Of a DNA stretch of 64,000 nucleotides, positions 47,567 through 64,000 are shown in pieces. The translations under genes and the position numbers were made by a program. Below the pieces are notes generated by a model. That model was not told where the DNA came from, made no database searches, and saw only the letters and a list, made by a program, of their open reading frames with translations. Numbering within the stretch: position 1 is the first letter of the stretch; every line of letters begins with the position of its first letter. The stretch comes from an uncultured Ignavibacteria bacterium (lineage in GTDB: Bacteria > Zixibacteria > MSB-5A5 > WJJR01): the NCBI GenBank assembly GCA_964371625.1, contig CAYJMP010000002.1, positions 197,034 to 261,033 on the forward strand. Reading direction: 5' to 3'.

Positions 47567-49198
47567 TTAGAATTGCAGGCTCATTCCCGCTTCCAACCTG
47601 TGCCCGCGCGTGTCGTCCCCGCCACTCAACTGACCGAGAGCATTGAGCGCGAGTGCCTGGGTAATTCCAACCCGGACTGTCAGATCCGCGCGTCGATTCA
47701 GACGGGCGTCGGAATTGCCTGCGAGAGTGTAACTGTACAGTCCCGCGCCAAGGCTGATCCAGTCGCGTTGACCAACACCCTGTCCCAAGGATGCGTTGAG
47801 ATTGTAACCGGAGGTGGCATCGCTCACGAAACGGACCCCCTGCACGCTGAAACTGCTCTTGGGGTTGAAAAGACCCTGCTTGCGCACGGCGCCATTGTAT
47901 GAGGTTGTCCGGTCCTGCTCTCCTTCCACTGAACGCACACCCGCACCGGCGGACAGATAGATCCCTTCCGGCAAGGCAAGATCGAATTGCGTCCGGACAC
48001 CCTGACGCACACGATCATCAAAGATGCTGTCGGCGATATCACGCGTCTCGTAGGTCCGGTAGCTCTTACGTGTGTCGTAGGACACCGACGCGGTGAGACT
48101 GCGCGTGAGATTCACCCGCCCCTGTGCGTAGATCGTCGAGAGACTGATTGACTGACTGTTTTCACTCTTGCGCCAGCCGCGATTGACATCAAGCTCGAGG
48201 CTGTGACTGAGGTTCCAACGGCCATTGCGTGCCATGCGGCCTTGGGCGAACAGCGCCTCGCGGCTCGCCGTCCCGCCATGGTACTGCCCGACGACGGAAA
48301 ACGTCTGATCCAGCAGGAAGTCGCGCGCCGACCCGCGCCGGTAACCAGCATACGCGCCGTAAGTCTGAAGATTCGGGCGATTCTCTGCGTACTGCCATTG
48401 CGAATTGGCTCCACCGAAAATCCCGATGCGCGCGAATTGCGAAACACGATACTCAATGGAACCGCCATCCAGCCGGCCGATGGCGCCCACGCGTGCTGGA
48501 TTGATTCGACCCATCGACATCCCTGCCCGCGAACCTTCGGGTTTGTACTCCAAAACGAAAGTCGCAATGCGACTCTCCCAAGAGTTCTCACGACCATCAT
48601 CACTGGGAACAACACGGCGATCCCGTCTCCCCGACGTTCGAAGGGCGAATGACAGCCCCGGCGTCCAGAGTGGCTCGACGCGGAGATCGATATCGACCCG
48701 CCCCTGGCCGAAATCCAGCCCGGCATCGCTGTGATCGTCCCAGTTGCTGTACATCATCGCAATTGAGCCAGATGCCTCCGGATGGATCGCCGGACCATCA
48801 TTGACGCGGGATTCGACGGGATCTACTCGTTGAATCTGGGAGAGCGCTTCTGCGGTTGACTGGGGAGCTGGTTCGGAGGTATCTGGCACGGCACGAAGCT
48901 CAACGTTGAGCTTGACGACATCACCTACCGATAGACTCACAACGGGTTCAGGCATCCGGCACGCCGAAGAGTGTTCTGCCAGATGGAGCACCTCGAGTTC
49001 GGCGATTTTCTGATCGTCACGGAATACCACGGGTCTCGCCCCGACAAACAGTCCTTCCGCCCTGCCCCCATTCAGATACACCAGGTCCGCGGAAACAAAT
49101 GTCACCTTGAGCACACGCTCGATGGTTTCCGCGCAGACCACAGACGCAGACAACAGGAGTATCGCGACGCAAATCGAGACGGCGACAAGAGATCTCAC
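47567..49198 (-). CDS. Outer-membrane beta-barrel protein (putative porin partner of the cytochromes)
   Basis: Signal peptide; alternating aromatic/hydrophilic beta-strand pattern; C-terminal ...GMSLQF with terminal Phe; GTG start overlaps cytochrome stop (GTGA). Confidence 0.6.
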   Translation of the reverse strand: MRSLVAVSICVAILLLSASVVCAETIERVLKVTFVSADLVYLNGGRAEGLFVGARPVVFRDDQKIAELEVLHLAEHSSACRMPEPVVSLSVGDVVKLNVELRAVPDTSEPAPQSTAEALSQIQRVDPVESRVNDGPAIHPEASGSIAMMYSNWDDHSDAGLDFGQGRVDIDLRVEPLWTPGLSFALRTSGRRDRRVVPSDDGRENSWESRIATFVLEYKPEGSRAGMSMGRINPARVGAIGRLDGGSIEYRVSQFARIGIFGGANSQWQYAENRPNLQTYGAYAGYRRGSARDFLLDQTFSVVGQYHGGTASREALFAQGRMARNGRWNLSHSLELDVNRGWRKSENSQSISLSTIYAQGRVNLTRSLTASVSYDTRKSYRTYETRDIADSIFDDRVRQGVRTQFDLALPEGIYLSAGAGVRSVEGEQDRTTSYNGAVRKQGLFNPKSSFSVQGVRFVSDATSGYNLNASLGQGVGQRDWISLGAGLYSYTLAGNSDARLNRRADLTVRVGITQALALNALGQLSGGDDTRGHRLEAGMSLQF

Positions 49199-52100
49199 TC
49201 GTCCCCCCGCGGGTGGCAGCTATAACACGCTGCGCTGAGGTACTGATACCCGTTTACTTCGTTGTGGTCGTCGTCCGTGTCAGTCCTGTTGTGCTCGTGG
49301 CAGAGGATGCACTCGAAGGTGGCGAAACTGGCCGAGTTGACGTGGCAGTCGGCGCAGTCATTCCACTTGTCTTTGTGTTTACCTGAGTAGATCGGGAAGT
49401 ATTGCGAATCGTGATTCCAATTGGCCGGAGTCCAGGCGGTCGTCGTATGGCATGTCTGGCACGTTGTCGGAAATCCTGCCGCCGCGTGATCGGGCGTCGC
49501 CGTGCTGTAATCGCTGCTGTGGCAGGCGAAGCACTCCGAGGACGTCCCGCTGTACCCTGATGCGTGGCAACTGTTGCACGTCACGGTCCGATGCGCACCG
49601 GTCAGCGGGAACCCCGTCTGATTGTGATCATAGGTCGCGGGTGTCCATGCGGTCGTCGTATGACACACTGTGCACTGAGTCGAGAAACCCGCGGTCACGT
49701 GATTGGGATCGGTGACACCGGTGTAATCGCTTTCATGACACGCCAGACATGCGGTCGGAGTGCCTGAGTACCCGATCGAGTGGCAGCTGTTGCATGTCAC
49801 CGTGATATGCGCGCCGGTCAATGGGAACGCGGACTGATTGTGATCGAATGACGCCGGTGTCCAGCCGCTCGTTGTGTGACACTGTTCGCAGAGTGTCGGG
49901 AAACCCGAGCTGACGTGATTCGGATCACTCGCTCCGGTGAAATCATCATGATGACAAGCATCGCATGCCGATGGCGTCCCGGTGTATCCCGCTGCGTGAC
50001 AGCTCGCGCAGGTCGTCGATGTGTGCGCTCCCGTCAACGGAAATCCGCTCAGGTTGTGATCGAAGGACGATGGTGTCCAAGCCGTCGTCGTGTGACACTG
50101 CTCACAGAGAGTTGGAAATCCCCCGGTGACGTGATTGGGGTCGGTGACTCCCGAATAATCACTCGAGTGGCAGGCGTAACACGCAGATGATGTTCCCGCG
50201 AATCCGGTTGAATGACAGCTGTTGCAGGTCACGCTCTGATGCGCTCCGGTCAGCGTGAATCCGGTCTGCGTGTGTGACCACGTCGATGGGTCCCAACTCG
50301 ACGTGTTGTGGCATTGCGTGCAGGTGGTCGAGAACCCCGCCGCCGTGTGATTGGGATCGGTGACGCCAGTGAAGTCGGCATGATGGCAGGCATCGCACTC
50401 GGTTGGTGTTCCCGTATATCCACTCGCGTGGCAACTGACGCATGTGACCGAGCGATGTGCTCCGGTCAACGCGAATCCACTGAGATTGTGATCGAAGGAT
50501 GATGGTGTCCACGCCGTCGTCGTGTGGCATTGCTCACAGAGTGTGGGGAATCCTCCGGAGACGTGGTTGGGGTCGGTGACCCCGGTGTAGTCGCTTGCGT
50601 GACAGGCGTAGCACGCCGCGGCAGTCCCCGCGAAGCCGGTGGAATGACAACTGTTACACGTGACACTTTGATGTGCTCCGGTCAGTGTGAACCCGGTTTG
50701 CGTATGCGACCAACTCGACGGGTCCCAATTCGACGTGCTATGGCACTGCACGCAGTTCGTGGAGAATGCCGCCAATGAGTGATTGGGATCGGACGCGCCG
50801 GTGAAATCACTGTGGTGACAGGCATCGCACTGCGTCGGTGTCCCGGTGTACCCACTCGCGTGACACTTGACGCATGTGATCGTCCGGTGTGCACCGGTCA
50901 GGGCGAATCCGGTTAAGTTATGATCCAATGTCGCAGGCGTCCAGCCGGCGGAAGTATGGCATTGGGCACAGGCTGTTGAGAATCCTGCGCTGATGTGATT
51001 CGGGTCGATCACGGCCAGGTAATCGGCGTGATGGCAGGCATCGCATTGCGTTGGTGTGCCCGCATACCCGGATGTATGACAGCTCGCACAGGAAACCGCG
51101 GTGTGTAGTCCTGTCAGTGCAAAACCTGTGGTGCTGTGGTTGAAAGTCGCCGGCTCCCAGGCAGACGTTCCATGGCATTGCGCGCAGTCGGTCGGAAAAC
51201 CCGAATGAGAGGGATCGTCCGCTTGCGTGAAATCGGTCTCATGGCAGGCGATGCACGCCGAGGCTGTCCCCGTGTACCCGGTCGTGTGGCATTGATTGCA
51301 CGCCACCGCCAAGTGCGCGCCGGTCAATGGGAATCCGGTCAGGTTATGATCGAGAGTCGCCGGCTCCCATGCCGCGGTTGTGTGGCATTGTGTGCATTCG
51401 GTCGGAAACCCGTTCGCTGCGTGACCCGGGTCGTCCGTGTTGGTGTAATCGGATTCATGGCAAGCGAAGCAGGCCGACGGTGTCCCGGTATACCCTGAGG
51501 CATGGCAATTATTACAGCTGACAGAGACGTGAGCGCCCGTGAGCGGGAATCCTGTCAGATTGTGATCGAGAGTGGCAGGAGTCCACGCCGTCGTGGTGTG
51601 GCACTGAGTGCACTCGGTTCCAAAACCGGCCGCCACGTGGTCCGGATCATCGACACCTGTGTAATCCGGCTCATGACAGGCGAGGCAGGCTGACGGTGTA
51701 CCCGTGAATCCCGAGGTATGGCAATTGTTGCATGAGACAGCGATATGGGCGCCAGTCAACGGGAAGTCGGATAGATTGTGATCCCAATCGGCCGTCTCCC
51801 ACGCCGACGTCGCGTGACATGTCGCACAGTCTGTAGAGAAATGCGAACCGTCATGATCGGGGTCGGCGGCGCCTGTGTAGTCAGTGGCATGGCAGGCATA
51901 GCATAGAGTCGAAGTTCCGGTGAAACCTGATTGGTGACAATCGTTACAGGCCGCAGCCACATGCGCACCCGTCAACGGGAAATCCGTCAGGTCGTGATCA
52001 ATGTCGGCCGGCTCCCATGCGGATGTCGTGTGACACTCCGCGCACTCGGTGGAGAAATCCGAAGCGACGTGATTGGGATCGACCGCCCCAGTGAAATCAC

Positions 52101-54321
52101 TCTGGTGGCACGCCAGGCATTCCGATGATGTACCGGTGTAGCCCGATGTGTGACAATTCTCGCACGTCACTGAGACATGCGCGCCCGTTAACGGGAAGGC
52201 CGTCAGATCGTGATCGAGATTGGCCGGTTTCCAAGCCGATGTCGTGTGACAGAGGGCGCACTCCGTCGGGAACCCCGCCGCCGCATGATCCGGATCCGGA
52301 GCCGCAGCATAATCGCTGCTGTGGCACGCATTGCATGTCAATTCTGTCCCCGTATATCCACTCGTGTGGCAATTCTCGCAAGTGACGCTCACATGCGCAC
52401 CCGTGAGCGGGAATCCGGTCAGGTTGTGATCGAGATTGGCCGGATCCCACGCCGAAGTGGTATGGCACTGCGCGCATTTTGTCGGGAAGCCGGCGGTGAC
52501 GTGATTGGGATCGGCCGCCAGCATGTAGTCGCTTTCATGGCATGCCACGCACTCGGATTGAGTTCCAGTGTATCCCGAAGCGTGGCAGTTCACACAGGAC
52601 ACTGCCGCGTGCGCGCCCGTCAGTGAGAACCCCGTGAGATCGTGATCAAGATTCGCCGGTGTCCAGGCCTCGGTCGTGTGACATTCCGAGCATTCAGTCG
52701 AGAATCCGGCAGCCGCATGATCCGGGTCGGGTGCGTTGGCATAGTCGTCACCGTGGCATGCGAGGCACGTGGACTGCGCTCCTGTGTACCCGCTGGCGTG
52801 GCAATTCTCGCACGTCACGCTCGCGTGGGCGCCGGTGAGCGGAAATCCCGTGAGATCATGATCGAGATTGGCCGGCCGCCAGCCTGCTGTTGTGTGGCAT
52901 TGCGTGCATTCAGTTGAGAATCCCGCCGTGACGTGGTTGGGATCTGCTGCTGTTGTGTAGTCCCCTTCATGGCAGGCAACACACGCAGTTGCCGTCCCCG
53001 TGAAACCCTCCGAATGGCAATTGTTGCAGGTCACCTCGACATGCACCCCGGTCAGCGGGAACCCAGTCATGTCGTGATCGAGATTCGCCGGAGTCCAACC
53101 GGATGTCGAATGGCACCCGGCGCACTCAGTTGAAAACCCTGCCGCGAGATGGTTCGGATCTGGCGTCGTACTATAATCGTTTTCATGGCAAGCGTAGCAG
53201 TCCGACGACGTGCCAGTATATCCTGATGTATGGCAGTTTTCGCAAGTGACGGCGACGTGTGCCCCGGTGAGCGGGAAATGTGTCAGGTCGTGATCGAGAT
53301 TCGCCGGCGCCCAGTCCTCCGTGCTATGGCAGAGCACACACTCCGTAGGGAATCCGGCCGTCTGGTGATTCGGATCTTCGGCGGTCGCGTAGTCGCTCTC
53401 ATGACAACCCGCACAGGTCGAAGCCGTGCCGGAGAATCCTTCAGTATGGCAACTGTTGCATGTCACCTCGACATGCGCACCCGTGAGCGGAAACGTCGTC
53501 AGATTATGATCGAGTTCGGCCGGAATCCAGGCAACCGTGGTGTGGCACTGGACACACTGTGTCGCAAATCCCGCTGTCACATGGTCCGGGTCGGGTGTCT
53601 CGCGGAACTCAGTTTCATGACAGGCAAAGCAGTCGGTCGAGGTGCCAGCAAATGCGGTCGCATGGCAACTATTGCATGACAAGGCCGCGTGTGCGTTTGT
53701 GAGTGGAAATGTCGCTGGGTGATCGTATACCGCGCTCGCCCAAGTGAGCGCTCCCGCTCCATGACACGACTCGCATTCCTGTGAGAATCCCGCCAAAGCA
53801 TGCTCGGGATTCGTGGCAGCCTGATAGTCGCCACTGTGGCATGAGGCGCATGCCGTCGAAGTCCCCGCGTATTCGCGCGGCATCTGATTCACATGGCAAG
53901 CGCCGCAATCGGCGATGGCGTGCGCGCCGGTAAGCGCGAAGCCCTTCTGCGCATGTTGTTCGAAGACTTCGCGATTGTTCTTCCAGTTTTCCGGGGTGTG
54001 GCAGGTTTGGCACTCGGTCCCTAGCTGGCCGCGATGGACATCGGCGTGGCAATCGGCGCAGGCCGATGCGGTCTCCACAAATTTGAGATCCTGGTGGCAG
54101 GTCGCGCACCGCGTCTTGGCGTGGACTCCAACCAGCGGAAAGCCCGTCTCCCCATGCGCAAATCCCGATGGCTGACGCATGTCCGTCCATGACTTCATCG
54201 TGTGGCACTGCTGACAATCCCAACGAATCTCCCCGTGCGGATTCAGGATCATCGTCTGTGCCGCCACGCTGACACAGAGGAGAGCAACCAGGACAGCTGC
54301 GAGGGCAAGAGTGCGCTTCAT
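49195..54321 (-). CDS. Giant multihaem cytochrome c (~70 CxxCH motifs by manual count)
   Basis: Signal peptide MKRTLALAAVLVALLCVSVAAQ; about 20 tandem ~56-aa modules each carrying three CxxCH; start ATG overlaps upstream cytochrome stop (ATGA at 54318-54321). Confidence 0.85.
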   Translation of the reverse strand: MKRTLALAAVLVALLCVSVAAQTMILNPHGEIRWDCQQCHTMKSWTDMRQPSGFAHGETGFPLVGVHAKTRCATCHQDLKFVETASACADCHADVHRGQLGTECQTCHTPENWKNNREVFEQHAQKGFALTGAHAIADCGACHVNQMPREYAGTSTACASCHSGDYQAATNPEHALAGFSQECESCHGAGALTWASAVYDHPATFPLTNAHAALSCNSCHATAFAGTSTDCFACHETEFRETPDPDHVTAGFATQCVQCHTTVAWIPAELDHNLTTFPLTGAHVEVTCNSCHTEGFSGTASTCAGCHESDYATAEDPNHQTAGFPTECVLCHSTEDWAPANLDHDLTHFPLTGAHVAVTCENCHTSGYTGTSSDCYACHENDYSTTPDPNHLAAGFSTECAGCHSTSGWTPANLDHDMTGFPLTGVHVEVTCNNCHSEGFTGTATACVACHEGDYTTAADPNHVTAGFSTECTQCHTTAGWRPANLDHDLTGFPLTGAHASVTCENCHASGYTGAQSTCLACHGDDYANAPDPDHAAAGFSTECSECHTTEAWTPANLDHDLTGFSLTGAHAAVSCVNCHASGYTGTQSECVACHESDYMLAADPNHVTAGFPTKCAQCHTTSAWDPANLDHNLTGFPLTGAHVSVTCENCHTSGYTGTELTCNACHSSDYAAAPDPDHAAAGFPTECALCHTTSAWKPANLDHDLTAFPLTGAHVSVTCENCHTSGYTGTSSECLACHQSDFTGAVDPNHVASDFSTECAECHTTSAWEPADIDHDLTDFPLTGAHVAAACNDCHQSGFTGTSTLCYACHATDYTGAADPDHDGSHFSTDCATCHATSAWETADWDHNLSDFPLTGAHIAVSCNNCHTSGFTGTPSACLACHEPDYTGVDDPDHVAAGFGTECTQCHTTTAWTPATLDHNLTGFPLTGAHVSVSCNNCHASGYTGTPSACFACHESDYTNTDDPGHAANGFPTECTQCHTTAAWEPATLDHNLTGFPLTGAHLAVACNQCHTTGYTGTASACIACHETDFTQADDPSHSGFPTDCAQCHGTSAWEPATFNHSTTGFALTGLHTAVSCASCHTSGYAGTPTQCDACHHADYLAVIDPNHISAGFSTACAQCHTSAGWTPATLDHNLTGFALTGAHRTITCVKCHASGYTGTPTQCDACHHSDFTGASDPNHSLAAFSTNCVQCHSTSNWDPSSWSHTQTGFTLTGAHQSVTCNSCHSTGFAGTAAACYACHASDYTGVTDPNHVSGGFPTLCEQCHTTTAWTPSSFDHNLSGFALTGAHRSVTCVSCHASGYTGTPTECDACHHADFTGVTDPNHTAAGFSTTCTQCHNTSSWDPSTWSHTQTGFTLTGAHQSVTCNSCHSTGFAGTSSACYACHSSDYSGVTDPNHVTGGFPTLCEQCHTTTAWTPSSFDHNLSGFPLTGAHTSTTCASCHAAGYTGTPSACDACHHDDFTGASDPNHVSSGFPTLCEQCHTTSGWTPASFDHNQSAFPLTGAHITVTCNSCHSIGYSGTPTACLACHESDYTGVTDPNHVTAGFSTQCTVCHTTTAWTPATYDHNQTGFPLTGAHRTVTCNSCHASGYSGTSSECFACHSSDYSTATPDHAAAGFPTTCQTCHTTTAWTPANWNHDSQYFPIYSGKHKDKWNDCADCHVNSASFATFECILCHEHNRTDTDDDHNEVNGYQYLSAACYSCHPRGDE

Positions 54322-56003
54322 GGCGTCGCCCCCTTGGCTGTCACACTGTCTGTCCCGTGGCAGGCGCGACAACTCCTGTCATCAATATGATAGTCCACAA
54401 ACGCGAAAGCGGCGTCCTGGGTGGGCTTATGACAGCCAGCGCAAGGCACCTTGGCGTGCGCGCCGTCGAGCGGGTATTCAGTTAGCTTGTTGTGATCAAA
54501 GAGCGTGGCCTGCCAATTTGAAGGCGTGTGGCAGCGGTCGCATCGGATTTGTGGCACCGTATCGGCAACCGCAAACTGACCACGGTGCACATCGCGGTGG
54601 CACATCTCGCAATCACGACGCAACGGTGCGAACGCAAGCCGGGCAATGTCCACGGCATTCGAATCGCCGCGGTGGCATGATGCGCAATTGACAGACGCAT
54701 GCTTTCCCGTCAAGGCGAAACCAGTGCTGTCGTGCGCAAACACAACCGCGGACCAGCTTGCTTCCGAATGACATTCTTGGCACCCGGAGCGCTCGACGAT
54801 CCGTGCTAACTGACCCTTGTGGACATCCTTGTGACAATCCTGACAGCGCATTGACGACCACGTGTAATGCCCCTCACGCGCCACCATGTTTCCTTTAGCA
54901 TCGCCATGGCACTGAACACACGGCAAGGCCAAGTGCGCCTGGCGTAACGTGAATCGCGTGGCCTTATGTTGTTCGATGGTGAATTGTGCAGGCATATACC
55001 CGGCGACAGTGTGGCACTCTTCACACGCGCCGCCCTGCGCCCGGTCGGCGAACTCGCCTTTGTGATGGTCCTGATGACAATCACGACAGGCTTGGAATTT
55101 CAGGCCGCTCTTGGGTTTGCCAGCCGCATGGCATTTGTCGCAGGCAACTATCCTGTGACGTCCTTCCAGCGGATAACGGGTTTTGCTGTGATCGAATCCC
55201 GCTTGCTCCGCGACCTGCCACCCTGTCGTCGTATGGCATCCCTCGCACCGCGATCCGAGACGCCCCGCGTGGGAATCCTTATGGCAGTTGCTGCAATTCT
55301 CGTGTCGCACATTGGCAAAACGCGAGTACTCGTGATCGGTCGTCGAACTCGGATCTTCGACTTTCTGATGACATTTGGCGCAGGCCGTCGTCTCGTGGCG
55401 GCCGGTCAGAACGAACTTCGTCCGGTCATGATCGAACCCAGGCGCCGGTGACCATCCCTCAAATGTGTGACAGCGATTACAGTCCGAAGCCAGCTGGCCA
55501 CGGTGCTCGTCGAAATGACAGGACGCACAACTCGTATCCAAACCGAGGTAAGTCTTGGAGAGGTCTTTCTGTCGGAGTCGGAGCTGCTCGCTATCCCGAT
55601 TGAAGTCGGTCTTGTGGCAGGCACGGCACGTCGTCTTCGCATGCTTTCCTTGAAGCGGGTAGCCTGCAAGTTGGTGATCGAAACCCTTTTCACCGGCCTT
55701 CCAGTAGATCAAGTCGAAATCACGCCCATGGTGTTCCACGTGGCAGTTCTCACATTCCCGATACTCGGCCTGCGCGTGCAACCCGCGTCCGCGATCGATG
55801 CGCGCCTGCATCTCGGTGTGACAGCTGAGACACTTGCCGTGCATCTGATCCGAATCCCGATCATGGCACTTGTTGCAGTTCTCGACACCGTCCAAAAAGG
55901 CGTGGGAACGATGCAGATCGCCCGGCGACAGTTGCGCGTTCGCTCTTTGGCAGAGTGTGGCCATCATGATAAATCCGACGATCTGTGCCAGCCCGCGAGG
56001 CAT
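54318..56003 (-). CDS. Multihaem cytochrome c (~20 CxxCH motifs)
   Basis: Internal ATG with signal peptide MPRGLAQIVGFIMMATLCQRANA; about 20 CxxCH counted. Confidence 0.85.
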   Translation of the reverse strand: MPRGLAQIVGFIMMATLCQRANAQLSPGDLHRSHAFLDGVENCNKCHDRDSDQMHGKCLSCHTEMQARIDRGRGLHAQAEYRECENCHVEHHGRDFDLIYWKAGEKGFDHQLAGYPLQGKHAKTTCRACHKTDFNRDSEQLRLRQKDLSKTYLGLDTSCASCHFDEHRGQLASDCNRCHTFEGWSPAPGFDHDRTKFVLTGRHETTACAKCHQKVEDPSSTTDHEYSRFANVRHENCSNCHKDSHAGRLGSRCEGCHTTTGWQVAEQAGFDHSKTRYPLEGRHRIVACDKCHAAGKPKSGLKFQACRDCHQDHHKGEFADRAQGGACEECHTVAGYMPAQFTIEQHKATRFTLRQAHLALPCVQCHGDAKGNMVAREGHYTWSSMRCQDCHKDVHKGQLARIVERSGCQECHSEASWSAVVFAHDSTGFALTGKHASVNCASCHRGDSNAVDIARLAFAPLRRDCEMCHRDVHRGQFAVADTVPQIRCDRCHTPSNWQATLFDHNKLTEYPLDGAHAKVPCAGCHKPTQDAAFAFVDYHIDDRSCRACHGTDSVTAKGATP

Positions 56004-56011
56004 GATGAAGA

Positions 56012-57034
56012 TCAGGACATCCAGCCATAGCCGGTCCAAACGGCCACGACAATGTGTATTCCCATCACGAGGTACATGACGATCGCGAAGGGTTTGTGGA
56101 ACACGTGCCAGTAATGGAACAACCGCTGCATCTGATGCCACACTTGAATGCGGCGATCCAGGAGCGTGATCTGCGCGACGACGTCATTCAACTGCGAGAT
56201 CTGGTTGTGACTACGTCCCCCGGAATTCGCGGATTCGATGGCTCGGCGACGCCGCAAGAGCTGCTTCAAGTCATCAACGACGATCCACGCGAGCGAACGC
56301 CACGCGCCTTCGCTGGCTTCCACCTCGCGCGATTGCTCCAAGTGCGCTACGGCCGACTCCGAAAGTCCGAATTCCGACTTCAAGACACCGCGCAGGCGAT
56401 TCCGTGATTGATGGACCTCTTCCAACGTCATCTGGTCGCCGCGCAGATTGCGCGGAATCTGAGAATACAGATACCGTCCCAGGACTCCGCTGACGGCAAC
56501 GCAGACCATGGACCAGAAGGCGACGGCCACCAATCCCTGAACTTTGAACGAAGTGTGCAGTACGATCAAAAGCGGCCCGACAACTCCGAAGTAGATGTGG
56601 ACGTCAAGCCAGTATGGAAGTGCGCCCCAGCGCGACAGTCCCTGGAAGCGCTTCCGCACCGTGTACCCGAGCATCAGCACCATCATTGATGCGCCGACGA
56701 TACCAAAGAGCAACCCGCGTGATCCGGCGGGACGCAGCTCGCGATAATCGGCGTGATGCGGACGCTCCGCATACGGAGTGGAATAATACGAGTACCCGTC
56801 GAGGAAGAGCGCCAGCCAGATCGCAATCGAGACCGTGTACGCGATAGTCTTCCAGCGAAGCCGCCGACGCGCATTGTGGACAGAAGTTGTCTCGCCCTTT
56901 TCCGCCAGTGGAGCCGACGGAAATGTGGTCACTTCTTGTACAACTTCCGAGTTCAACCCCTGCACAGGCAGTCCCCTGAATGGCTGTGGACAATCGGAGT
57001 CACCGTCGACGGTGACAACACCCGGACACCACAT
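56012..57034 (-). CDS. Integral membrane protein, possible dihaem cytochrome b-type subunit; start uncertain
   Basis: Four or more TM helices with paired His (LDVHIYFGVVGPLLIVLHTSF; HYWHVFHKPFAIVMYLVMGIHIV); 8 bp upstream of the 20-haem cytochrome. Confidence 0.45.
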   Translation of the reverse strand: MWCPGVVTVDGDSDCPQPFRGLPVQGLNSEVVQEVTTFPSAPLAEKGETTSVHNARRRLRWKTIAYTVSIAIWLALFLDGYSYYSTPYAERPHHADYRELRPAGSRGLLFGIVGASMMVLMLGYTVRKRFQGLSRWGALPYWLDVHIYFGVVGPLLIVLHTSFKVQGLVAVAFWSMVCVAVSGVLGRYLYSQIPRNLRGDQMTLEEVHQSRNRLRGVLKSEFGLSESAVAHLEQSREVEASEGAWRSLAWIVVDDLKQLLRRRRAIESANSGGRSHNQISQLNDVVAQITLLDRRIQVWHQMQRLFHYWHVFHKPFAIVMYLVMGIHIVVAVWTGYGWMS

Positions 57035-57390
57035 CTCTCACTGCTCTTAAGACGACGCGCCCGCCCCTGATAAGAGTACATCGGCCCTATCAATACTAAA
57101 ATTGAGCCGTTTCGCGTGCGAACAGGCAAAGGCATTCGAGCTTGCGCGCAGAGTTCCTTGCGGCAAACCCTACCTTTGTTTCTTCTATGAGTAAATCCGT
57201 CCGATTTCGAGCCGTCCCAGATGCCGAGATTTTGTGAGAGTGACGGCGACCGGCTCGATTCAGCGTGACTCCAAGGTATTGCCCCCCGAGGAATCAAACC
57301 CACGCGTGTTACACCAATCTGTCAGACCCGGTTCCAGACAGCAAGGCCGATTCCGCGAAAAACCAGACTTAAAGCGAATGCGATCGCCGC

Positions 57391-57430
57391 GTTGAAATGG
57401 AAAGGGCCCGCGAGAAATCCCCGCGGGCCC
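57391..57430 (-). terminator. Terminator hairpin after giant adhesin gene
   Basis: gggcccgcg / cgcgggccc 9-bp stem; U-rich tract follows on minus strand. Confidence 0.5.
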
Positions 57431-57454
57431 TTTTAACTACCGGTGAAAACTATG

Positions 57455-60400
57455 TTATCTGATCAGCGTCATCTTACGCGTGGCGTTCCACTTGGGAGTC
57501 ATCACGCGATAGAAGTAGACACCGCTGGCGACCTCGGAGCCGTCGCGGTCGCGGCCGTCCCAACTCACCCGGACATTGCTCGCATCCGCCGATCCCTCAA
57601 AGGTCCGGACAACCTGACCTAGAACGTTGTATATCGACACGTTCCAGTCCGTCGCCTCCTTCAGATCAAATCCAATCACCGTTCCGGCATTAAAGGGATT
57701 GGGATAATTCTGAAGCAATGCATACTCCGTGGGGACGATCGCTTTCGCCGCCGTCGTCGACAAGAGCGCCCCATGGGCATCGGACAATTGCACCTCCACC
57801 AACTCGATGGTGCCTTCACCATTTGTCGGGATGGACAACACGTCCTGATGACCGGCGCCGATAGTCGCCCACTCGCCTTCCCATGACGGATGAATGAGGA
57901 CGCGCAATTCCCCGGCATTGGCCAGATAACGGACAGTCATACCGGCTCCGCCAGCCATCAACGCCGGCTCTCCGACGGCCAGGCCCTCGTAGCGGAAGAC
58001 AAGCAAAGCGCCGCCCAAATCAACTGGCGCCGATGTCGCCACTGTCAGGTGTTTGTCCTCGACCCGGACCACAGCGGTCCCTGAATTCGCGTACGGCGAG
58101 AGCTTCGGCGAGCCGGTTCCCGTTCCGGGCGGGAACGGCTGCTCGTCGCCGGTGATGACGCGGATCAGGTAGATCAGGTCCGCCACCGTGAGGACGATGC
58201 CGTCATCGTTCACGTCGCTCGCCAGGATCTGGACCTCTTGCCAGGTCGGATCCCACACCCACGAACCATAGATGAAGTAGTTCGTGAACAGAACCGCGTC
58301 ACCGACCTCATTGGCGATGCCGTTGAGGTTGATATCGCCGCGGTCATCCGGTGGCTCCATGATGCACACATATCCGGTCGAGAAGCAGATTCCCGGAATC
58401 GGGTTGACCTTGGCGTTCGACTGGCAAGTATCAACAATCATCAGATGATCGACCCAGGTCGTATCGCCCGAGCGGCTCGATATCGTATTGTCGCCGCAAT
58501 CGAGCCAACAGAAGTTGATCGGCACACACTGGCCAATCAGGTTCCGGTCTGGAGAGACTTGGAAGGTCAATTCGGCGATTGAACCGATCGGATTGTACAC
58601 CGACTCCGGCGGCGTGATGCCATTGTTCATGTTCGCGATGCCGATCAGTCGCACGTACCCCGACGGGCAGGCGCCCACGCAGTTCCCGTTGGGTCCATAC
58701 CGGTACGTGAAGTACTCCCAATCCTCAATCGCCTCCGCGCTGTTGGCATACAAGAAGGTCAAGACCGATTGATCGTAGCAGATCAGGAAGTCAAACCCGC
58801 CGATGGGTCCCGCCACGCTGTCGATATTGACCGGCACAGTCACCTGCTGTCCGTTCAGGATCTGCAGCGTGCCGTCACCATCGCCGATCGACACGATCAG
58901 CAAGCAGTTACAGAGATCTTCATCGATGTCAAGGTAGACACAGAAGCTCTGCTGACACGATTCGCCGCAGGCGTCGGTGCAGCGGATCGTCACACACACC
59001 TGGCCGTTCCCAAACGGCGTGTAAACCCAGTTGCCGTTGATGAGACTGCCGGGGCCGTTGATGATCTGGCAACTGACGAGATTGCCGTCCGGATCAATGG
59101 CACCCACCGGAATCGAGACCTGCTGAGGAACGCAATTCTGATGGATCGTCAGATCTCCGGGAATCTGGCATTGCGGCGGGTCATTCAGATCAAATGTGAC
59201 CGTGAAATCGCCGTCCGCGTACGCGCCGCAGGAATCCGTCACGCGGAAAACGATCGTCACCACCTGATCGCTGTTGGAGTTGTAGCACCACTGACCGTTT
59301 GCGATCGTTCCCGGACCGCTGATTTTGGTAATCGTAACCGGTTTGCCCTCGGGATCGGTTCCGCAGACCGGCACACAGATCTGCGCGTTGTCACATTGCG
59401 AAACAGTCGTGTCGCTAACCTGACAGGCCACCGGCGGCTGATTGCGCGTTACGGTCACGTTGACCGTGTCGTAATCAGTCGCACCGCAAGTGTCCTGCAC
59501 GCGGGCCACGATCGTATAAACGCCACCGGCAGGAGGCGTGAAACAAACACGATTCAGCACCTGATCCAGCACCGCTCCGCCCGGACCGGCAATCAACGAC
59601 TCAGTGAGGGCGTTGCCGTTCGGATCGGTCGCAGTATAGTCGACGCAAATCGGCTCGGCGTTGCATTGGAACACGGCCTTGTCGGCGCCGAAGCTGATGG
59701 AAGGTGGATCGTTCGTGGTAACCGTTACAACCACCGTGTCACAATCGGTGAGCCCGCAACTGTCGGTCAGACACACAATGATCGGGAAGCTGCCCTCGCC
59801 GGCAGGAGTGAAACACACCTGGTTTGCGCCGGCATTCAACACCGCGCCGGCCGGACCTGAGGCGAGCACCTCACTCGAACCATTCAGGCCATTCGGGTCG
59901 CTTGTCGTGTAATTCACACAGATCTGCGCCGGCGTACATTGGAACACGTTTTGATCCGGACCGAATGCAATCACCGGCGGATCGTTAACCTGGACGCTGA
60001 CGTTGAAGCTGCTTTCACAGAAGTTATTGCAATCGTCGCTGCAACGGATCGTCACCGAGAAGGACGCGTCGCCGACCGGCGTGTAAGTCCAGTTGCCACT
60101 GACCACATTGCCCGGTCCAACCGTAACGACGCACGTCGGCGTCGCGTCACAGTTGTCTGTTGCCGACACCGGAATCGTGATCTGCGTCGGCGCGCATTGG
60201 AAGTAGTTGAACGGTCCCGCCGGAATGTTGCAGACCGGCGCCTGCGTATCCTGAACGGTGATGATCTGCGTGCAGGTTGCCTGATTGCCGCAATCATCGA
60301 CCGCGGTCCAGACTCGCGTGATTGTGCCCGAATAGCCGCCGCACCCTGTGAGATTCGGAGTCTCGACCAGAGTCGGAGCCACGCTCGGATCACAGTTGTC

Positions 60401-63400
60401 GGAGGCTGTCACTGTCGCAGCCGGCGGCACCGGGTCATTGCACGGAATCGTCGTGTTCGCCGGACAGCCCGAGAGCGTCGGCGCAACGTTGTCGATCACC
60501 GTGATGGTGCGCGAGCACTGCGCCTGGGCGCCGCATGAATCTGTCGCCGTATACGTGTCTGTGTAGACCAACGGGCTGGCAGTACAACCGGAGCCACCGT
60601 TGTCCGTGCGGTTGCAGATTACATTAACCGTCCCAGCGCCGCCGACTACCGTCACGTCGGCCGGATTGCACGCTGGAACTAGAGTCGCACACGTGAAGTT
60701 CAGATTACCCGGACAGGTGATCTGCGGCAGATTGCCCACATTGAACGTGACATCAAAGACTTTCTGGCAGAAGGCGTCACAGGCATCTGTGCACTTGATG
60801 GTGACCGTCACCGTGCCGCTGCTGACAGGCGTGTAACACCAGTTTCCACCGCTCAGGACACCCGGCCCACCGTCAATTAGACATTCAACGAGATTTCCGT
60901 CGCCATCCGTCGCCGAAACCGGGAGACAGACTTGCATCGGAGCGCACTGGAAGATCGTGGTGTCATTCGGCACCGAACACTCCGGAGCCTCATTCATCAC
61001 AAAGGTGACCGTGAATGTCTGTTCGCAGGTGAAATCGCAGGAATCCACGCAGCGGATCGATACGACGACGGTCTCGTCACCGCTCGGTGTGTAGCACCAG
61101 TTCCCGTTGAGCGTCCCCGGACCACTGATAATGGAACAAGACTTGAGGTTGCCATCAATGTCAGTGGCCGACACCGGCAGACAGACCGGCGTCGGGGCAC
61201 ACTGGAAGATGGTCGTGTCTGCCGGAACGGAGCATTCCGGTGGATCGTTTACCACAAAGGTCACGGTAAATGTGGCTTCACAATACAACCCGCATGAATC
61301 CGTGCAGCGGATTGTCACGGGGACATCAAAGCTCTTGTCGCCACCACCGGTCGGAGTGTAACACCACTCACCGTCAAAGATGCCGCCGTCGCCGCTGACA
61401 ACCTCGCAATTGTCGAGATTGCCATTCGGATCAATCGCGGAAACCGGAAGACAAACCTCCGTCGGCGTGCATTGGTAAATCGTCGTGTCATTCGGCACTT
61501 GGCAGACAGGCGCATCGTTGATGTCGATGGTCACATCAAACTGATCGGGACAGAAGCCCCCCAGTGTGTCATAACACCGTATGGTCACCGTAAATGACGT
61601 GTCCCCGGTCGGGGTGTAACACCACATACTGTCCGCGCCCAAAACGCCAGGACCATCGTAGACCACACAAGTCGTCGGCCCGTACATGCTCGTGGCGAAG
61701 ATCTTTCCAAGACAAATCTCCGTCGGCGTGCATTGCACCACCGCCGTGTCCTCGGGGATATGGCAGACAGGATTCTCGTGCGGCGAAATGAGTATGAAGA
61801 CGGTGTCGTAATCGACCGCGCCGCACGGGTCGGTCACACTGACAACAAGGAAGAAATTGTCCGCCACATCCGGAACGAAGCAATAGAGATTGGCCGATGT
61901 GTCGAGATAATAAGTACCGAGATTGCTGTACTCCAACTGCTCGACAAGGCCACCGAGTCCTTGTGGATCGCTGACTGCGTAGGATAAGCAGACCGTATCC
62001 CCATCGAGATTCTGGACAACATACGGGTCCGCGCCCAAGTCGATGTCCGGCGGATCGTTGAGCCCAAAGTCGACACTAAACGTCGCCTCGCAATAGGCGC
62101 CGCAGGCGTCGGTGCAACGGATCGTCACATTCGCGATTTCATCGCCCGTCGGTGTGTAGCACCAGTTCCCGCCCGACACCGTGCCCGGCCCCGCCACCAC
62201 CGCGCAACTGTTGAAGTTGCCGTCGGCATCGCTCGCCGAAACCGGCAGGCAGATCTCGGCGCCCGCGCATTGGAAGATCGCCGTGTCATTCGGAACACTG
62301 CACACCGGCGCTTCATTGATCTGGAACGTGACGCTGAACGTCTCTTCACAGTAGCTGCCGCAGGCGTCCGTACAACGAATGGTCACGTTTACCGTCTGAT
62401 CGCCTGACGGCGTGTAACACCAATTCCCTCCGGACAGTGACCCCGGCCCGTTCACAATCGCGCAACCGCTCAAGTTGCCGTTCACGTCCGAACCCGATAC
62501 TGGCAGGCAAACCTGCGCCGGAGCACATTGGAAGATCGTCGTATCGTTCGGGACAATACAGACCGGCGCGTCGTTGACATTGAACGTGACGCTGAAGGAC
62601 TCGTCACAAAATGCCCCGCAGGCATCGGTGCAACGGATCGTCACGTTGACCGTCTCGTCGCCCGATGGCGTGTAACACCAATTCCCGCCCGAGACTGTTC
62701 CCGGACCGACGACGACCGCGCAGCCCGAGAGGTTCCCATTCGGGTCGACAGAGGAGACGGCGCGGCAGACCTGGGTCGGCGCACATTGGAAATAGGTCGT
62801 GTCGCTGATCGGCGTGCAAACCGGGGCGTCGTTGATCTGGAACGTCACGCTAAAACTCTCGTCACAGTATGCGCCGCAGGCATCACTGCAACGAATCGTC
62901 ACATTGACCGTCTCGTCGCCTGACGGCGTGTAACACCAGTTGCCGCCCGAGACCGTACCCGGCCCAGTCAGCACTGCACAGCTGGCGAAGTTGCCGTTCA
63001 GATCGGTGGCGGATACGGGGCGACAAACCTCTGCCGGAGCACACTGGAAGTATGTCGTGTCACTGACCGAGACACACGCCGGCGCATCATTCATGCTGAA
63101 CGTGACGCTGAACGACTCCTCGCAATAGGCGCCGCAAGCATCGGTGCAACGAATCGTCACATTGACCGTCTCGTCGCCCGATGGCGTGTAGCACCAGTTC
63201 CCGGACGACAGCGTCCCGGGACCGTTGACAATGGCGCAGTTGCTCAGATTGCCGTCGGCATCGGTCGATAACACCGGCAGACACACCTGTGCAGGCGCGC
63301 ATTGGAAGAACGATGTATCCGGAATCGGCGTGCAGACCGGAGCCTCGTTAATGGCAAATGTCGCGCTGAAGGACTCATCGCAGAATGCGCCGCAGGCGTC

Positions 63401-64000
63401 GGTGCAACGGATCGTCACGTTGACCGTCTCGTCACCCGCCGGTGTGTAGCACCAGTTGCCGCCCGAGACCGTACCCGGTCCGGTCAAAACCGCGCAACTG
63501 CTGAAGTTGCCGTCCGCGTCCGTCGCCGAAACCGGACGGCAGACCTGCGTCGGTACGCATTGGAAGTATGAAGTATCCGCGAGAGCGACGCACGCGGGCG
63601 CCTCGTTGATATTAAAGGTGACGCTAAATGTCTCGTCGCAATAGGCGCCGCAGACATCGCTGCAACGGATGGTCACGTTCACTGTCTCATCGCCGGCGGG
63701 CGTGTAGCACCAGTTGCCGCCCGACACCGTTCCCGGCCCGCTCAGCACAGCACAACTGCTGAAATTGCCGTCGGCGTCGGTCGCCGAAACCGGACGACAG
63801 ACCTCTGCGGGGACACACTGGAAGTAGGTTGTGTCGGTTACCGCAGCACAGACGGGCGCCTCATTCATCTGGAACGTGACCTGGAATGTCTCGTCGCAGT
63901 AGGCGCCGCAGGCGTCGGTGCAGCGGATCGTCACGCTGACGACCTGGTCTCCCGACGGCGTGTAGCACCAATTCCCGCCAGACACCGTCCCCGGACCATT
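57455..64000 (-). CDS. Giant T9SS-secreted adhesin-like protein with tandem Cys-containing repeats, cohesin-like and dockerin-like modules; 5' end outside window
   Basis: More than 15 tandem ~100-aa repeats (NWCYTPxGDxxVxVTIRCxDxCGAxC); cohesin-like VTVPVNIDSVAGPIGGFDF; dockerin-like DINLNGIANEVGD...DVNDDGIVL; C-terminal sorting domain NYPNPFNAGT...KMTLIR; frame open to window end. Confidence 0.8.
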   Translation of the reverse strand, partial: NGPGTVSGGNWCYTPSGDQVVSVTIRCTDACGAYCDETFQVTFQMNEAPVCAAVTDTTYFQCVPAEVCRPVSATDADGNFSSCAVLSGPGTVSGGNWCYTPAGDETVNVTIRCSDVCGAYCDETFSVTFNINEAPACVALADTSYFQCVPTQVCRPVSATDADGNFSSCAVLTGPGTVSGGNWCYTPAGDETVNVTIRCTDACGAFCDESFSATFAINEAPVCTPIPDTSFFQCAPAQVCLPVLSTDADGNLSNCAIVNGPGTLSSGNWCYTPSGDETVNVTIRCTDACGAYCEESFSVTFSMNDAPACVSVSDTTYFQCAPAEVCRPVSATDLNGNFASCAVLTGPGTVSGGNWCYTPSGDETVNVTIRCSDACGAYCDESFSVTFQINDAPVCTPISDTTYFQCAPTQVCRAVSSVDPNGNLSGCAVVVGPGTVSGGNWCYTPSGDETVNVTIRCTDACGAFCDESFSVTFNVNDAPVCIVPNDTTIFQCAPAQVCLPVSGSDVNGNLSGCAIVNGPGSLSGGNWCYTPSGDQTVNVTIRCTDACGSYCEETFSVTFQINEAPVCSVPNDTAIFQCAGAEICLPVSASDADGNFNSCAVVAGPGTVSGGNWCYTPTGDEIANVTIRCTDACGAYCEATFSVDFGLNDPPDIDLGADPYVVQNLDGDTVCLSYAVSDPQGLGGLVEQLEYSNLGTYYLDTSANLYCFVPDVADNFFLVVSVTDPCGAVDYDTVFILISPHENPVCHIPEDTAVVQCTPTEICLGKIFATSMYGPTTCVVYDGPGVLGADSMWCYTPTGDTSFTVTIRCYDTLGGFCPDQFDVTIDINDAPVCQVPNDTTIYQCTPTEVCLPVSAIDPNGNLDNCEVVSGDGGIFDGEWCYTPTGGGDKSFDVPVTIRCTDSCGLYCEATFTVTFVVNDPPECSVPADTTIFQCAPTPVCLPVSATDIDGNLKSCSIISGPGTLNGNWCYTPSGDETVVVSIRCVDSCDFTCEQTFTVTFVMNEAPECSVPNDTTIFQCAPMQVCLPVSATDGDGNLVECLIDGGPGVLSGGNWCYTPVSSGTVTVTIKCTDACDAFCQKVFDVTFNVGNLPQITCPGNLNFTCATLVPACNPADVTVVGGAGTVNVICNRTDNGGSGCTASPLVYTDTYTATDSCGAQAQCSRTITVIDNVAPTLSGCPANTTIPCNDPVPPAATVTASDNCDPSVAPTLVETPNLTGCGGYSGTITRVWTAVDDCGNQATCTQIITVQDTQAPVCNIPAGPFNYFQCAPTQITIPVSATDNCDATPTCVVTVGPGNVVSGNWTYTPVGDASFSVTIRCSDDCNNFCESSFNVSVQVNDPPVIAFGPDQNVFQCTPAQICVNYTTSDPNGLNGSSEVLASGPAGAVLNAGANQVCFTPAGEGSFPIIVCLTDSCGLTDCDTVVVTVTTNDPPSISFGADKAVFQCNAEPICVDYTATDPNGNALTESLIAGPGGAVLDQVLNRVCFTPPAGGVYTIVARVQDTCGATDYDTVNVTVTRNQPPVACQVSDTTVSQCDNAQICVPVCGTDPEGKPVTITKISGPGTIANGQWCYNSNSDQVVTIVFRVTDSCGAYADGDFTVTFDLNDPPQCQIPGDLTIHQNCVPQQVSIPVGAIDPDGNLVSCQIINGPGSLINGNWVYTPFGNGQVCVTIRCTDACGESCQQSFCVYLDIDEDLCNCLLIVSIGDGDGTLQILNGQQVTVPVNIDSVAGPIGGFDFLICYDQSVLTFLYANSAEAIEDWEYFTYRYGPNGNCVGACPSGYVRLIGIANMNNGITPPESVYNPIGSIAELTFQVSPDRNLIGQCVPINFCWLDCGDNTISSRSGDTTWVDHLMIVDTCQSNAKVNPIPGICFSTGYVCIMEPPDDRGDINLNGIANEVGDAVLFTNYFIYGSWVWDPTWQEVQILASDVNDDGIVLTVADLIYLIRVITGDEQPFPPGTGTGSPKLSPYANSGTAVVRVEDKHLTVATSAPVDLGGALLVFRYEGLAVGEPALMAGGAGMTVRYLANAGELRVLIHPSWEGEWATIGAGHQDVLSIPTNGEGTIELVEVQLSDAHGALLSTTAAKAIVPTEYALLQNYPNPFNAGTVIGFDLKEATDWNVSIYNVLGQVVRTFEGSADASNVRVSWDGRDRDGSEVASGVYFYRVMTPKWNATRKMTLIR

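Follow-up and report, generated by a model that had tools for sequence, protein, structure and literature searches.

The window analysed here, a 64,000-nucleotide stretch of a contig from an uncultured Zixibacteria-type bacterium, ends in a long minus-strand reading frame that lies upstream of a multihaem cytochrome operon. Our best explanation, which we consider probable, is that the product of this frame is a giant fibrillar adhesin, secreted by the type IX secretion system (T9SS), transcribed as a unit of its own and equipped at its base with a cassette for cohesin-dockerin association. The cassette comprises a cohesin-fold module (Coh1), a dockerin (Doc) and a second cohesin-fold module (Coh2, with the working name X), followed by a C-terminal sorting domain (CTD). 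By sequence comparison, Coh1-Doc-Coh2-CTD is a lineage-wide cassette carried by many different passengers and is not peculiar to this adhesin. An earlier note on the same DNA had already proposed a T9SS adhesin with cohesin- and dockerin-like modules, and had linked it to the cytochrome operon and extracellular electron transfer.

The adhesin frame is open from position 64000 to a TAA stop at 57455-57457 (2,181 codons), and because no upstream in-frame stop is present at the window edge, the gene must start beyond it, in agreement with the earlier estimate of more than 2176 aa with the 5' end outside. Using the neighbouring 340-aa protein as a query against public assemblies, we reached two ENA contigs (1.09 Mb and 265 kb) that carry the complete gene of 3,004 aa and show 0 mismatches to the window across 17,989 nt; the window therefore covers residues 824-3004. 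The same neighbour protein occurs on 23 contigs. The 5' part beyond the window encodes the signal peptide, an unclassified head domain, a VWA domain and the first 1.5 repeats. The worry that tandem repeats make the assembly fragile was not borne out, as exact repeats in the gene reach at most 35 nt, the repeat units are mutually 59-84% identical at the protein level, and two separately assembled contigs are base-identical over ~18 kb. The parts of the gene in the window, numbered by the full-length protein, with immunoglobulin-like units abbreviated as Ig-like, are:

57455..64000 (-): 3' 73% of the adhesin gene, aa 824-3004 plus stop of the 3,004-aa protein
62060..64000 (-): tandem 86-aa 8-Cys Ig-like (Big_9) units, aa 824-1470; the array begins at aa 697, outside the window
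61778..62059 (-): divergent low-Cys Big_9 or tandem-95-like unit, aa 1471-1564
60737..61777 (-): four additional Ig-like units with 7 or 8 Cys each, aa 1565-1911
60245..60736 (-): pair of HYR-like units, aa 1912-2075, of which the second matches Pfam HYR_4C (PF23237; 31 bits, cut-off 27)
58928..60244 (-): five further Ig-like units of mixed type, aa 2076-2514; Big_9
58358..58915 (-): Coh1, Cys-rich cohesin-fold module, aa 2519-2704
58127..58357 (-): Doc, dockerin with two calcium-loop/helix segments, aa 2705-2781
57740..58084 (-): Coh2, smaller second cohesin-fold module, predicted to form a rigid pair with Doc, aa 2796-2910
57458..57730 (-): T9SS type A C-terminal sorting domain (TIGR04183, PF18962, FlgD_ig), aa 2914-3004

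The cassette corresponds to the C-terminal 486 residues of the adhesin. Its matches to PDB chain sequences are weak (FlgD and C5a-peptidase chains that align with the sorting domain, plus a single dockerin at E 0.22), and structure prediction was therefore required; an AlphaFold2 (AF2) model built with 59 homologue sequences has a mean predicted local distance difference test score (pLDDT) of 88.8 and a predicted template-modelling score (pTM) of 0.59. Coh1 scores 27.7 bits against Pfam Cohesin (PF00963) on its own and 25.4 within the whole protein, above the cut-off of 24.1, through profile positions 13-47 of 139 only. Its predicted structure (pLDDT ~90) has the nine-stranded jelly-roll beta-sandwich fold of cohesins, and Foldseek aligns it with type I cohesins at target-normalised template-modelling scores of 0.80-0.86 (E 3e-9), which confirms the cohesin-like module of the earlier note. 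Doc is predicted to adopt the three-helix dockerin fold with a duplicated calcium-binding loop and helix, and the residues D-x-N-x-[N/D]-G...D of its loops vary little or not at all within the cassette family, 16 of 29 members of which match the dockerin family PF00404 at E < 0.1 (best 7.8e-5). The dockerin-like module is thus upheld by its predicted fold, though its Pfam score is below threshold. The earlier note had accepted that a failure of domain searches to support either fold would count against it, and no such failure was seen.

Between Doc and the CTD lies a predicted second cohesin, Coh2, which was overlooked in the earlier note. The top Foldseek match of Coh2 is a non-cellulosomal cohesin from Archaeoglobus fulgidus (2xdh). 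Pfam and PDB profile searches with this module found nothing, and a profile-profile comparison with Coh1 aligned the GGFDF/GGALF strand as expected at a P of 0.15, which is not significant. Coh2 is therefore recognised by comparison of its predicted fold alone and belongs to no sequence-level family. When Doc and Coh2 were modelled together, AF2 gave a pLDDT of 88 and a pTM of 0.86 despite a linker of ~20 low-confidence residues, and since the score spans that linker, the arrangement of the two domains is predicted with confidence to be fixed. The sorting domain scores 45.7 bits against TIGR04183 (threshold 23), 29.6 against PF18962 (27) and 35.8 against FlgD_ig, at aa 2099-2177 of the 2181 residues in the window, so that the T9SS C-terminal domain reported previously is secure; together with the signal-peptide-like N-terminus (residues 1-42), this is the combination expected of T9SS type A cargo. 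From the folds of Coh1, Doc and Coh2 and the sorting domain, we assign the base of the adhesin as Coh1-Doc-Coh2-CTD.

Outward from the cassette, residues 697-2514 form ~21 Ig-like units, the majority of an 86-aa 8-Cys type that matches Pfam Big_9 (E 3e-48 for the window part of the protein, in 10 stretches, the best at window aa 1520-1602), with three low-Cys Big_9-type units and two HYR-like units interspersed. Tandem Repeats Finder reports a 258-nt period with 7.5 copies in the window and 73% matches, and searches of the 8-Cys repeat against PDB sequences gave no significant match. The tandem repeats described before are thus real, while their size and cysteine content need correction, from ~100 aa with four Cys to 86 aa with a canonical eight. 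Near the N-terminus, residues 359-534 form a VWA domain (PF00092, 38.8 bits), whose metal-site motif (DxSxS) reads DVSGS at residue 362, preceded by a head domain (residues 75-286) that has no Pfam match and recurs in other proteins, at times in tandem. The ~21 stalk units, the VWA domain with DVSGS and the T9SS sorting domain are together the parts of a fibrillar adhesin, from which an adhesive role is predicted. The same head, VWA and repeat build is found in a homologue of 2,914 aa (P0366). Regarding the head domain (~210 aa, L001 788-1423, outside the window), it is 48-52% identical to tandem copies in P0126. Head-query matches at ~30% coverage include proteins with glycosidase-type (P0142, P0146) and agmatine-deiminase (P0144) Pfam domains, in which the matching region may differ from the head.

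The cassette is widespread. Searching with its 486 aa returned 744 proteins. Where these have a named source, it is mostly Candidatus Zixiibacteriota. Among the best 120, the majority are covered over >90%, and the low-coverage remainder consists mostly of short fragments. A profile of the dockerin segment gave 1,548 matches at E <= 1e-3 and 1,218 at E <= 1e-10 among 1.84 billion cluster representatives. We annotated the best 140 of these matches with profiles of the four modules, disregarding local Coh matches of <150 aa because short matches arise spuriously on Ig repeats. In the dominant architecture among them, Coh-Doc-X-CTD comes after a passenger that varies and is 300-3,000 aa long, and others include tandem [Coh-Doc-X]n, free cohesins, and proteins with 3-4 cohesins per dockerin. 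After Doc, the examined architectures have either Coh2 or an unassigned stretch of about the same length without an X score, and Coh1 ends <=10 residues before Doc. A stand-alone cassette protein of 518 aa also exists. Further proteins consist of [Doc-X]2-3 without Coh1; these have no T9SS domain, and at their end stands another dockerin-like pair of conventional type. As a related observation, P0275, P0276, P0286, P0292, P0309 and P0310 have the form [Doc-Coh2]n or [Coh1-Doc-Coh2]n without a T9SS domain, and carry a C-terminal Cys-Pro and, at their end, a second, conventional-looking dockerin pair, which points to another specificity of dockerins in this system. In a scan of a genome collection, ~10 of 80 loci had the full cassette (best 40% identical), the rest matching the generic sorting-domain pattern. 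Cassette genes can also cluster, since a Zixibacteria metagenome-assembled genome (GCA_016199865.1) encodes a 1,096-aa cassette paralogue (L085 4151-7441, plus strand; 49% identical) 2.5 kb upstream of its adhesin orthologue.

Two features follow the adhesin gene at its 3' end:

57401..57433 (-): GC-rich hairpin, likely intrinsic terminator, ~20 nt past the adhesin stop
57035..57400 (-): leader/promoter region of the cytochrome operon, outside the adhesin unit, with blocks common to the window, L086, L087 and L090

The hairpin has a folding energy of -28.3 kcal/mol (z -4.7). A simple promoter and terminator scan of 56900-57600 called nothing, the hairpin being missed because its T-tail is imperfect (UUUCCAUUU); at the orthologous sites in L086 and L087, hairpins with canonical U7 tails are found. 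The gap from the adhesin stop to the operon is 420 nt, and its leader (~430 nt) contains blocks conserved in the window, L086 and L087 and also in L090, which has no adhesin; an Rfam search of the leader returned no family. The adhesin gene is probably its own transcription unit. The arrangement described in the earlier note, a terminator and then a multihaem operon on the same strand, with cytochromes of 20 and 70 CxxCH motifs, was thus correctly observed. The leader counterparts lie at L086 5520-5909, L087 1050-1417 and L090 560-887, with conserved blocks such as CCTCGGGGGGCA and CTCGAAATCGGACAGTTTnACTCA, and these blocks travel with the cytochrome operon regardless of the presence of the adhesin; they may belong to a promoter or to a regulatory RNA.

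Taken together, we propose the following for the adhesin. The order of its domains suggests that it is exported by Sec and then by the T9SS through the type A C-terminal domain, and, if it behaves like those T9SS type A cargo proteins that have been characterised, its sorting domain would probably be removed and the adhesin tethered to the outer membrane. From the cell outward, it would present the Coh1-Doc-Coh2 base, the stalk of ~21 disulfide-rich Ig-like domains, and a tip whose VWA and head domains are the likely ligand binders. In the modelled base, Doc and Coh2 would form a fixed pair, and the membrane-proximal cassette may associate in a calcium-dependent manner with its counterparts on neighbouring surface proteins or with connectors of the [Doc-Coh2]n type. 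Given the unequal numbers of cohesins and dockerins in relatives, partner binding through cohesin and dockerin is plausible; judged from sequence, the unequal counts fit binding between chains, and the constant Doc-X pairing also fits a complex within one chain. Because relatives have either surplus cohesins or cohesin-less [Doc-Coh2]n, the likeliest role of the cassette would be calcium-dependent self- or cross-linking of surface proteins near the outer membrane, and recruitment of enzymes or cytochromes appears less likely. The cell-surface scaffold of the earlier note therefore survives as a T9SS-type surface protein with cohesin and dockerin modules that plausibly bind partners, while its fit to electron transfer is not supported.

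Several observations weigh against this explanation. The Doc of the window scores only 15.9-16.4 bits against Pfam Dockerin_1 (PF00404), below the cut-off of 22.9, and each of its calcium loops exceeds the canonical 12 residues by one. In both loops the last acidic ligand falls at position 13 (D194 to D206, D234 to D246), where it is invariant in 59 of 59 aligned family members, and HMMER dockerin alignments require a 1-residue gap in the first Doc loop. No genes for the T9SS machinery turned up among the scanned window proteins, in a scan not aimed at them; a second CTD-bearing protein, the S8 peptidase listed below, supports a working T9SS. Finally, the adhesin adjoins the cytochrome operon in the window genome and in three related contigs (P0001, L086, L087), and some functional tie within this clade is possible.

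7070-9919 (+): S8 subtilase with two PKD domains and a type A sorting domain, without cohesin or dockerin; second T9SS cargo in the window

It is conceivable, although we hold this only tentatively, that Zixibacteria-type and some related genomes encode a large non-cellulosomal cohesin-dockerin system, in which the cassette on hundreds of T9SS surface proteins, together with secreted [Doc-Coh2]n and multi-cohesin connectors, forms a calcium-dependent protein lattice, or bundled fibres, at the outer membrane by self-assembly. Taken further, the idea would have one dockerin clamp both flanking cohesins, of the same or a neighbouring chain, with two symmetric faces. Alternatively, the base might be a self-contained pedestal, in which Doc is bound in-chain to Coh2, and possibly to Coh1 through a second symmetric face, so that it acts as a rigid spacer or folding unit and recruits nothing. 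The pTM of Doc with Coh2 across a poorly predicted linker agrees with such a unit, as does the arrangement of the modules, with Coh2 or a stretch of similar length after Doc and Coh1 close before it. However, the full cassette reaches a pTM of only 0.59, and proteins with 3-4 cohesins per dockerin, or with [Doc-X]n and no Coh1, are easier to explain by binding between chains; we therefore regard a pedestal as unlikely.

A different alternative, close to that of the earlier note, is that the adhesin attaches to minerals, holding cells or cytochromes on solid electron acceptors and working together with the multihaem operon. The operon lies downstream on the same strand and contains five genes, for a 340-aa membrane protein with weak DUF4405 similarity, a 20-CxxCH cytochrome, a 1,725-aa 70-CxxCH cytochrome, a 543-aa protein of no assigned family, and an Fe-S flavoprotein, the first three of which are:

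56012-57034 (-): 340-aa DUF4405-like membrane protein
54318-56141 (-): 607-aa cytochrome, 20 CxxCH
49195-54372 (-): 1,725-aa cytochrome, 70 CxxCH

This alternative draws on the adjacency of adhesin and operon, on the same strand, in the window genome and three related contigs, on the MtrC-like and c7-like domains of the 20- and 70-haem cytochromes, and on the non-cellulosomal cohesin and dockerin proteins noted in electron-transferring anaerobic methanotrophic (ANME) archaea (PMC9012536). However, when the Doc and cassette profiles were run against all other ORFs of the window, the only match was the sorting domain of the S8 peptidase; the cytochromes have no dockerin, cohesin or T9SS sorting domain and therefore cannot dock by the cohesin-dockerin route. 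For the window ORFs, this covers the search for dockerin-bearing partners that the earlier note suggested, and no dockerin is present there besides that of the adhesin. Moreover, the two units are separated by a strong terminator and a separately conserved leader, and the co-conservation expected of an operon accessory is lacking: the adhesin is missing upstream of the operon in five of the eight related contigs examined (L088, L089, L090, L091, L092), where efflux pumps or unrelated genes take its place. It is absent even in L090, in which the neighbour gene is 77% identical, as well as in L088, L089, L091 and L092, with neighbours 50-54% identical; by comparison, the adhesin orthologue of L086 is 78% identical over 1,820 aa. 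None of the 10 distant full-cassette loci has a multihaem gene within 10 kb. The proposed tie to the operon and to extracellular electron transfer is thus not supported, and this patchy synteny largely amounts to the lack of co-conservation that the earlier note itself had named as counting against it. Attachment to minerals in concert with the operon is improbable in our judgement, and the adjacency looks incidental, a chance of gene order confined to one lineage or, at most, a loose link through ecology.

A cellulosome-like scaffold, whose cohesins dock dockerin-bearing glycoside hydrolases for polymer degradation, is hardly credible and was rejected: although clostridial type I modules are the nearest in fold to the cohesin and dockerin here, no carbohydrate-active enzyme (CAZyme) domains were found in the adhesin or the scanned window ORFs, the dockerin-family passengers in the sample examined are Ig-like, HYR, VWA or more cassettes and not enzymes, and the adhesin has just two cohesins and its own dockerin, so that neither CAZymes with dockerins nor a multi-cohesin scaffoldin, nor any other dockerin in the window, is present.

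Cohesin-dockerin pairs are among the strongest protein-protein connectors known, and are understood almost only from Gram-positive cellulosomes. Compared with clostridial type I pairs (1ohz, 2ccl, 4fl4, 3ul4), the adhesin Doc shares the build of a duplicated calcium loop and helix. By contrast, the adhesin has neither enzymes nor a multi-cohesin scaffoldin and uses a Gram-negative-type secretion and anchor signal instead of SLH domains or sortase, and identity is only 9-32%, with the window Doc under the Pfam Dockerin_1 threshold. In the X-Doc dyads of type II/III cellulosomal dockerins (2b59, 4iu3), a dockerin is rigidly paired with an adjacent beta-sandwich, as predicted for Doc-Coh2, whereas here the partner module is C-terminal of the dockerin and has a cohesin fold rather than being an Ig-like X module. 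In Archaeoglobus fulgidus, the source of the best Foldseek match of Coh2, cohesin and dockerin can share one polypeptide. Non-cellulosomal cohesin and dockerin proteins are known in archaea, including electron-transferring ANME (PMC9012536), and these proteins, like those of A. fulgidus (2xdh) and Clostridium perfringens (2jh2, 2vo8), resemble the adhesin in using the folds outside cellulose degradation. Unlike them, the cassette has the fixed order Coh1-Doc-Coh2, forms the base of giant Ig-repeat adhesins in fusion with a T9SS sorting domain, has 13-residue calcium loops and, in genomes of the Zixibacteria type and their relatives, has been amplified to ~1,500 clusters.

In the Bacteroidota group, fibrillar adhesins and giant T9SS cargo, SprB-type proteins for example, have a long Ig-like stalk, an adhesive tip and a C-terminal sorting domain. 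The adhesin resembles these fibrillar proteins in its signal peptide, VWA and head at the tip, tandem Ig-like units (~21 here) and type A sorting domain, and differs from them in the Coh-Doc-Coh base inserted between stalk and sorting domain and in a stalk built of an 86-aa 8-Cys Big_9 variant. Each part, whether T9SS cargo, fibrillar adhesin or non-cellulosomal cohesin and dockerin, is of a known kind. The searched literature yielded nothing linking Zixibacteria or related phyla with dockerins, and, to judge by titles and abstracts, none of the papers in which cohesin and dockerin occur alongside type IX secretion appears to describe the cassette. The fixed Coh-Doc-Coh order in fusion with a T9SS signal, the 13-residue loops and the scale within one phylum appear to be undescribed.

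If our explanation is true, a T9SS-wired cassette on ~1,500 clusters in an uncultured phylum would mean that diderm bacteria have taken up the cohesin-dockerin connector to build their outer surface, and it would offer a new orthogonal set of cohesin-dockerin pairs for protein engineering. Inferences about the metabolism of these organisms should leave the adhesin out of the electron-transfer operon.

Some minor observations concern the cytochrome genes themselves. A search for homologues of the operon gave 1,545 hits. The operon is kept across Zixibacteria-type contigs, with 2-3 cytochrome genes of 249-1,708 aa called per contig, the large one varying widely in size. In the window, the ORF starts of the 340-aa and 20-haem genes are probably placed too far upstream: homologues of the 340-aa protein have ~310 aa, and in L002 the 20-haem gene has 561 aa and starts right after the upstream gene, so that the 130-nt overlap is gone. 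In an unrelated metagenome-assembled genome, an ORF of ~935 aa (L036 7484-10288, plus strand) has 9 CxxCH motifs, ends at a T9SS sorting-domain match and has other haem-rich ORFs nearby, and it may be a multihaem cytochrome exported by the T9SS.

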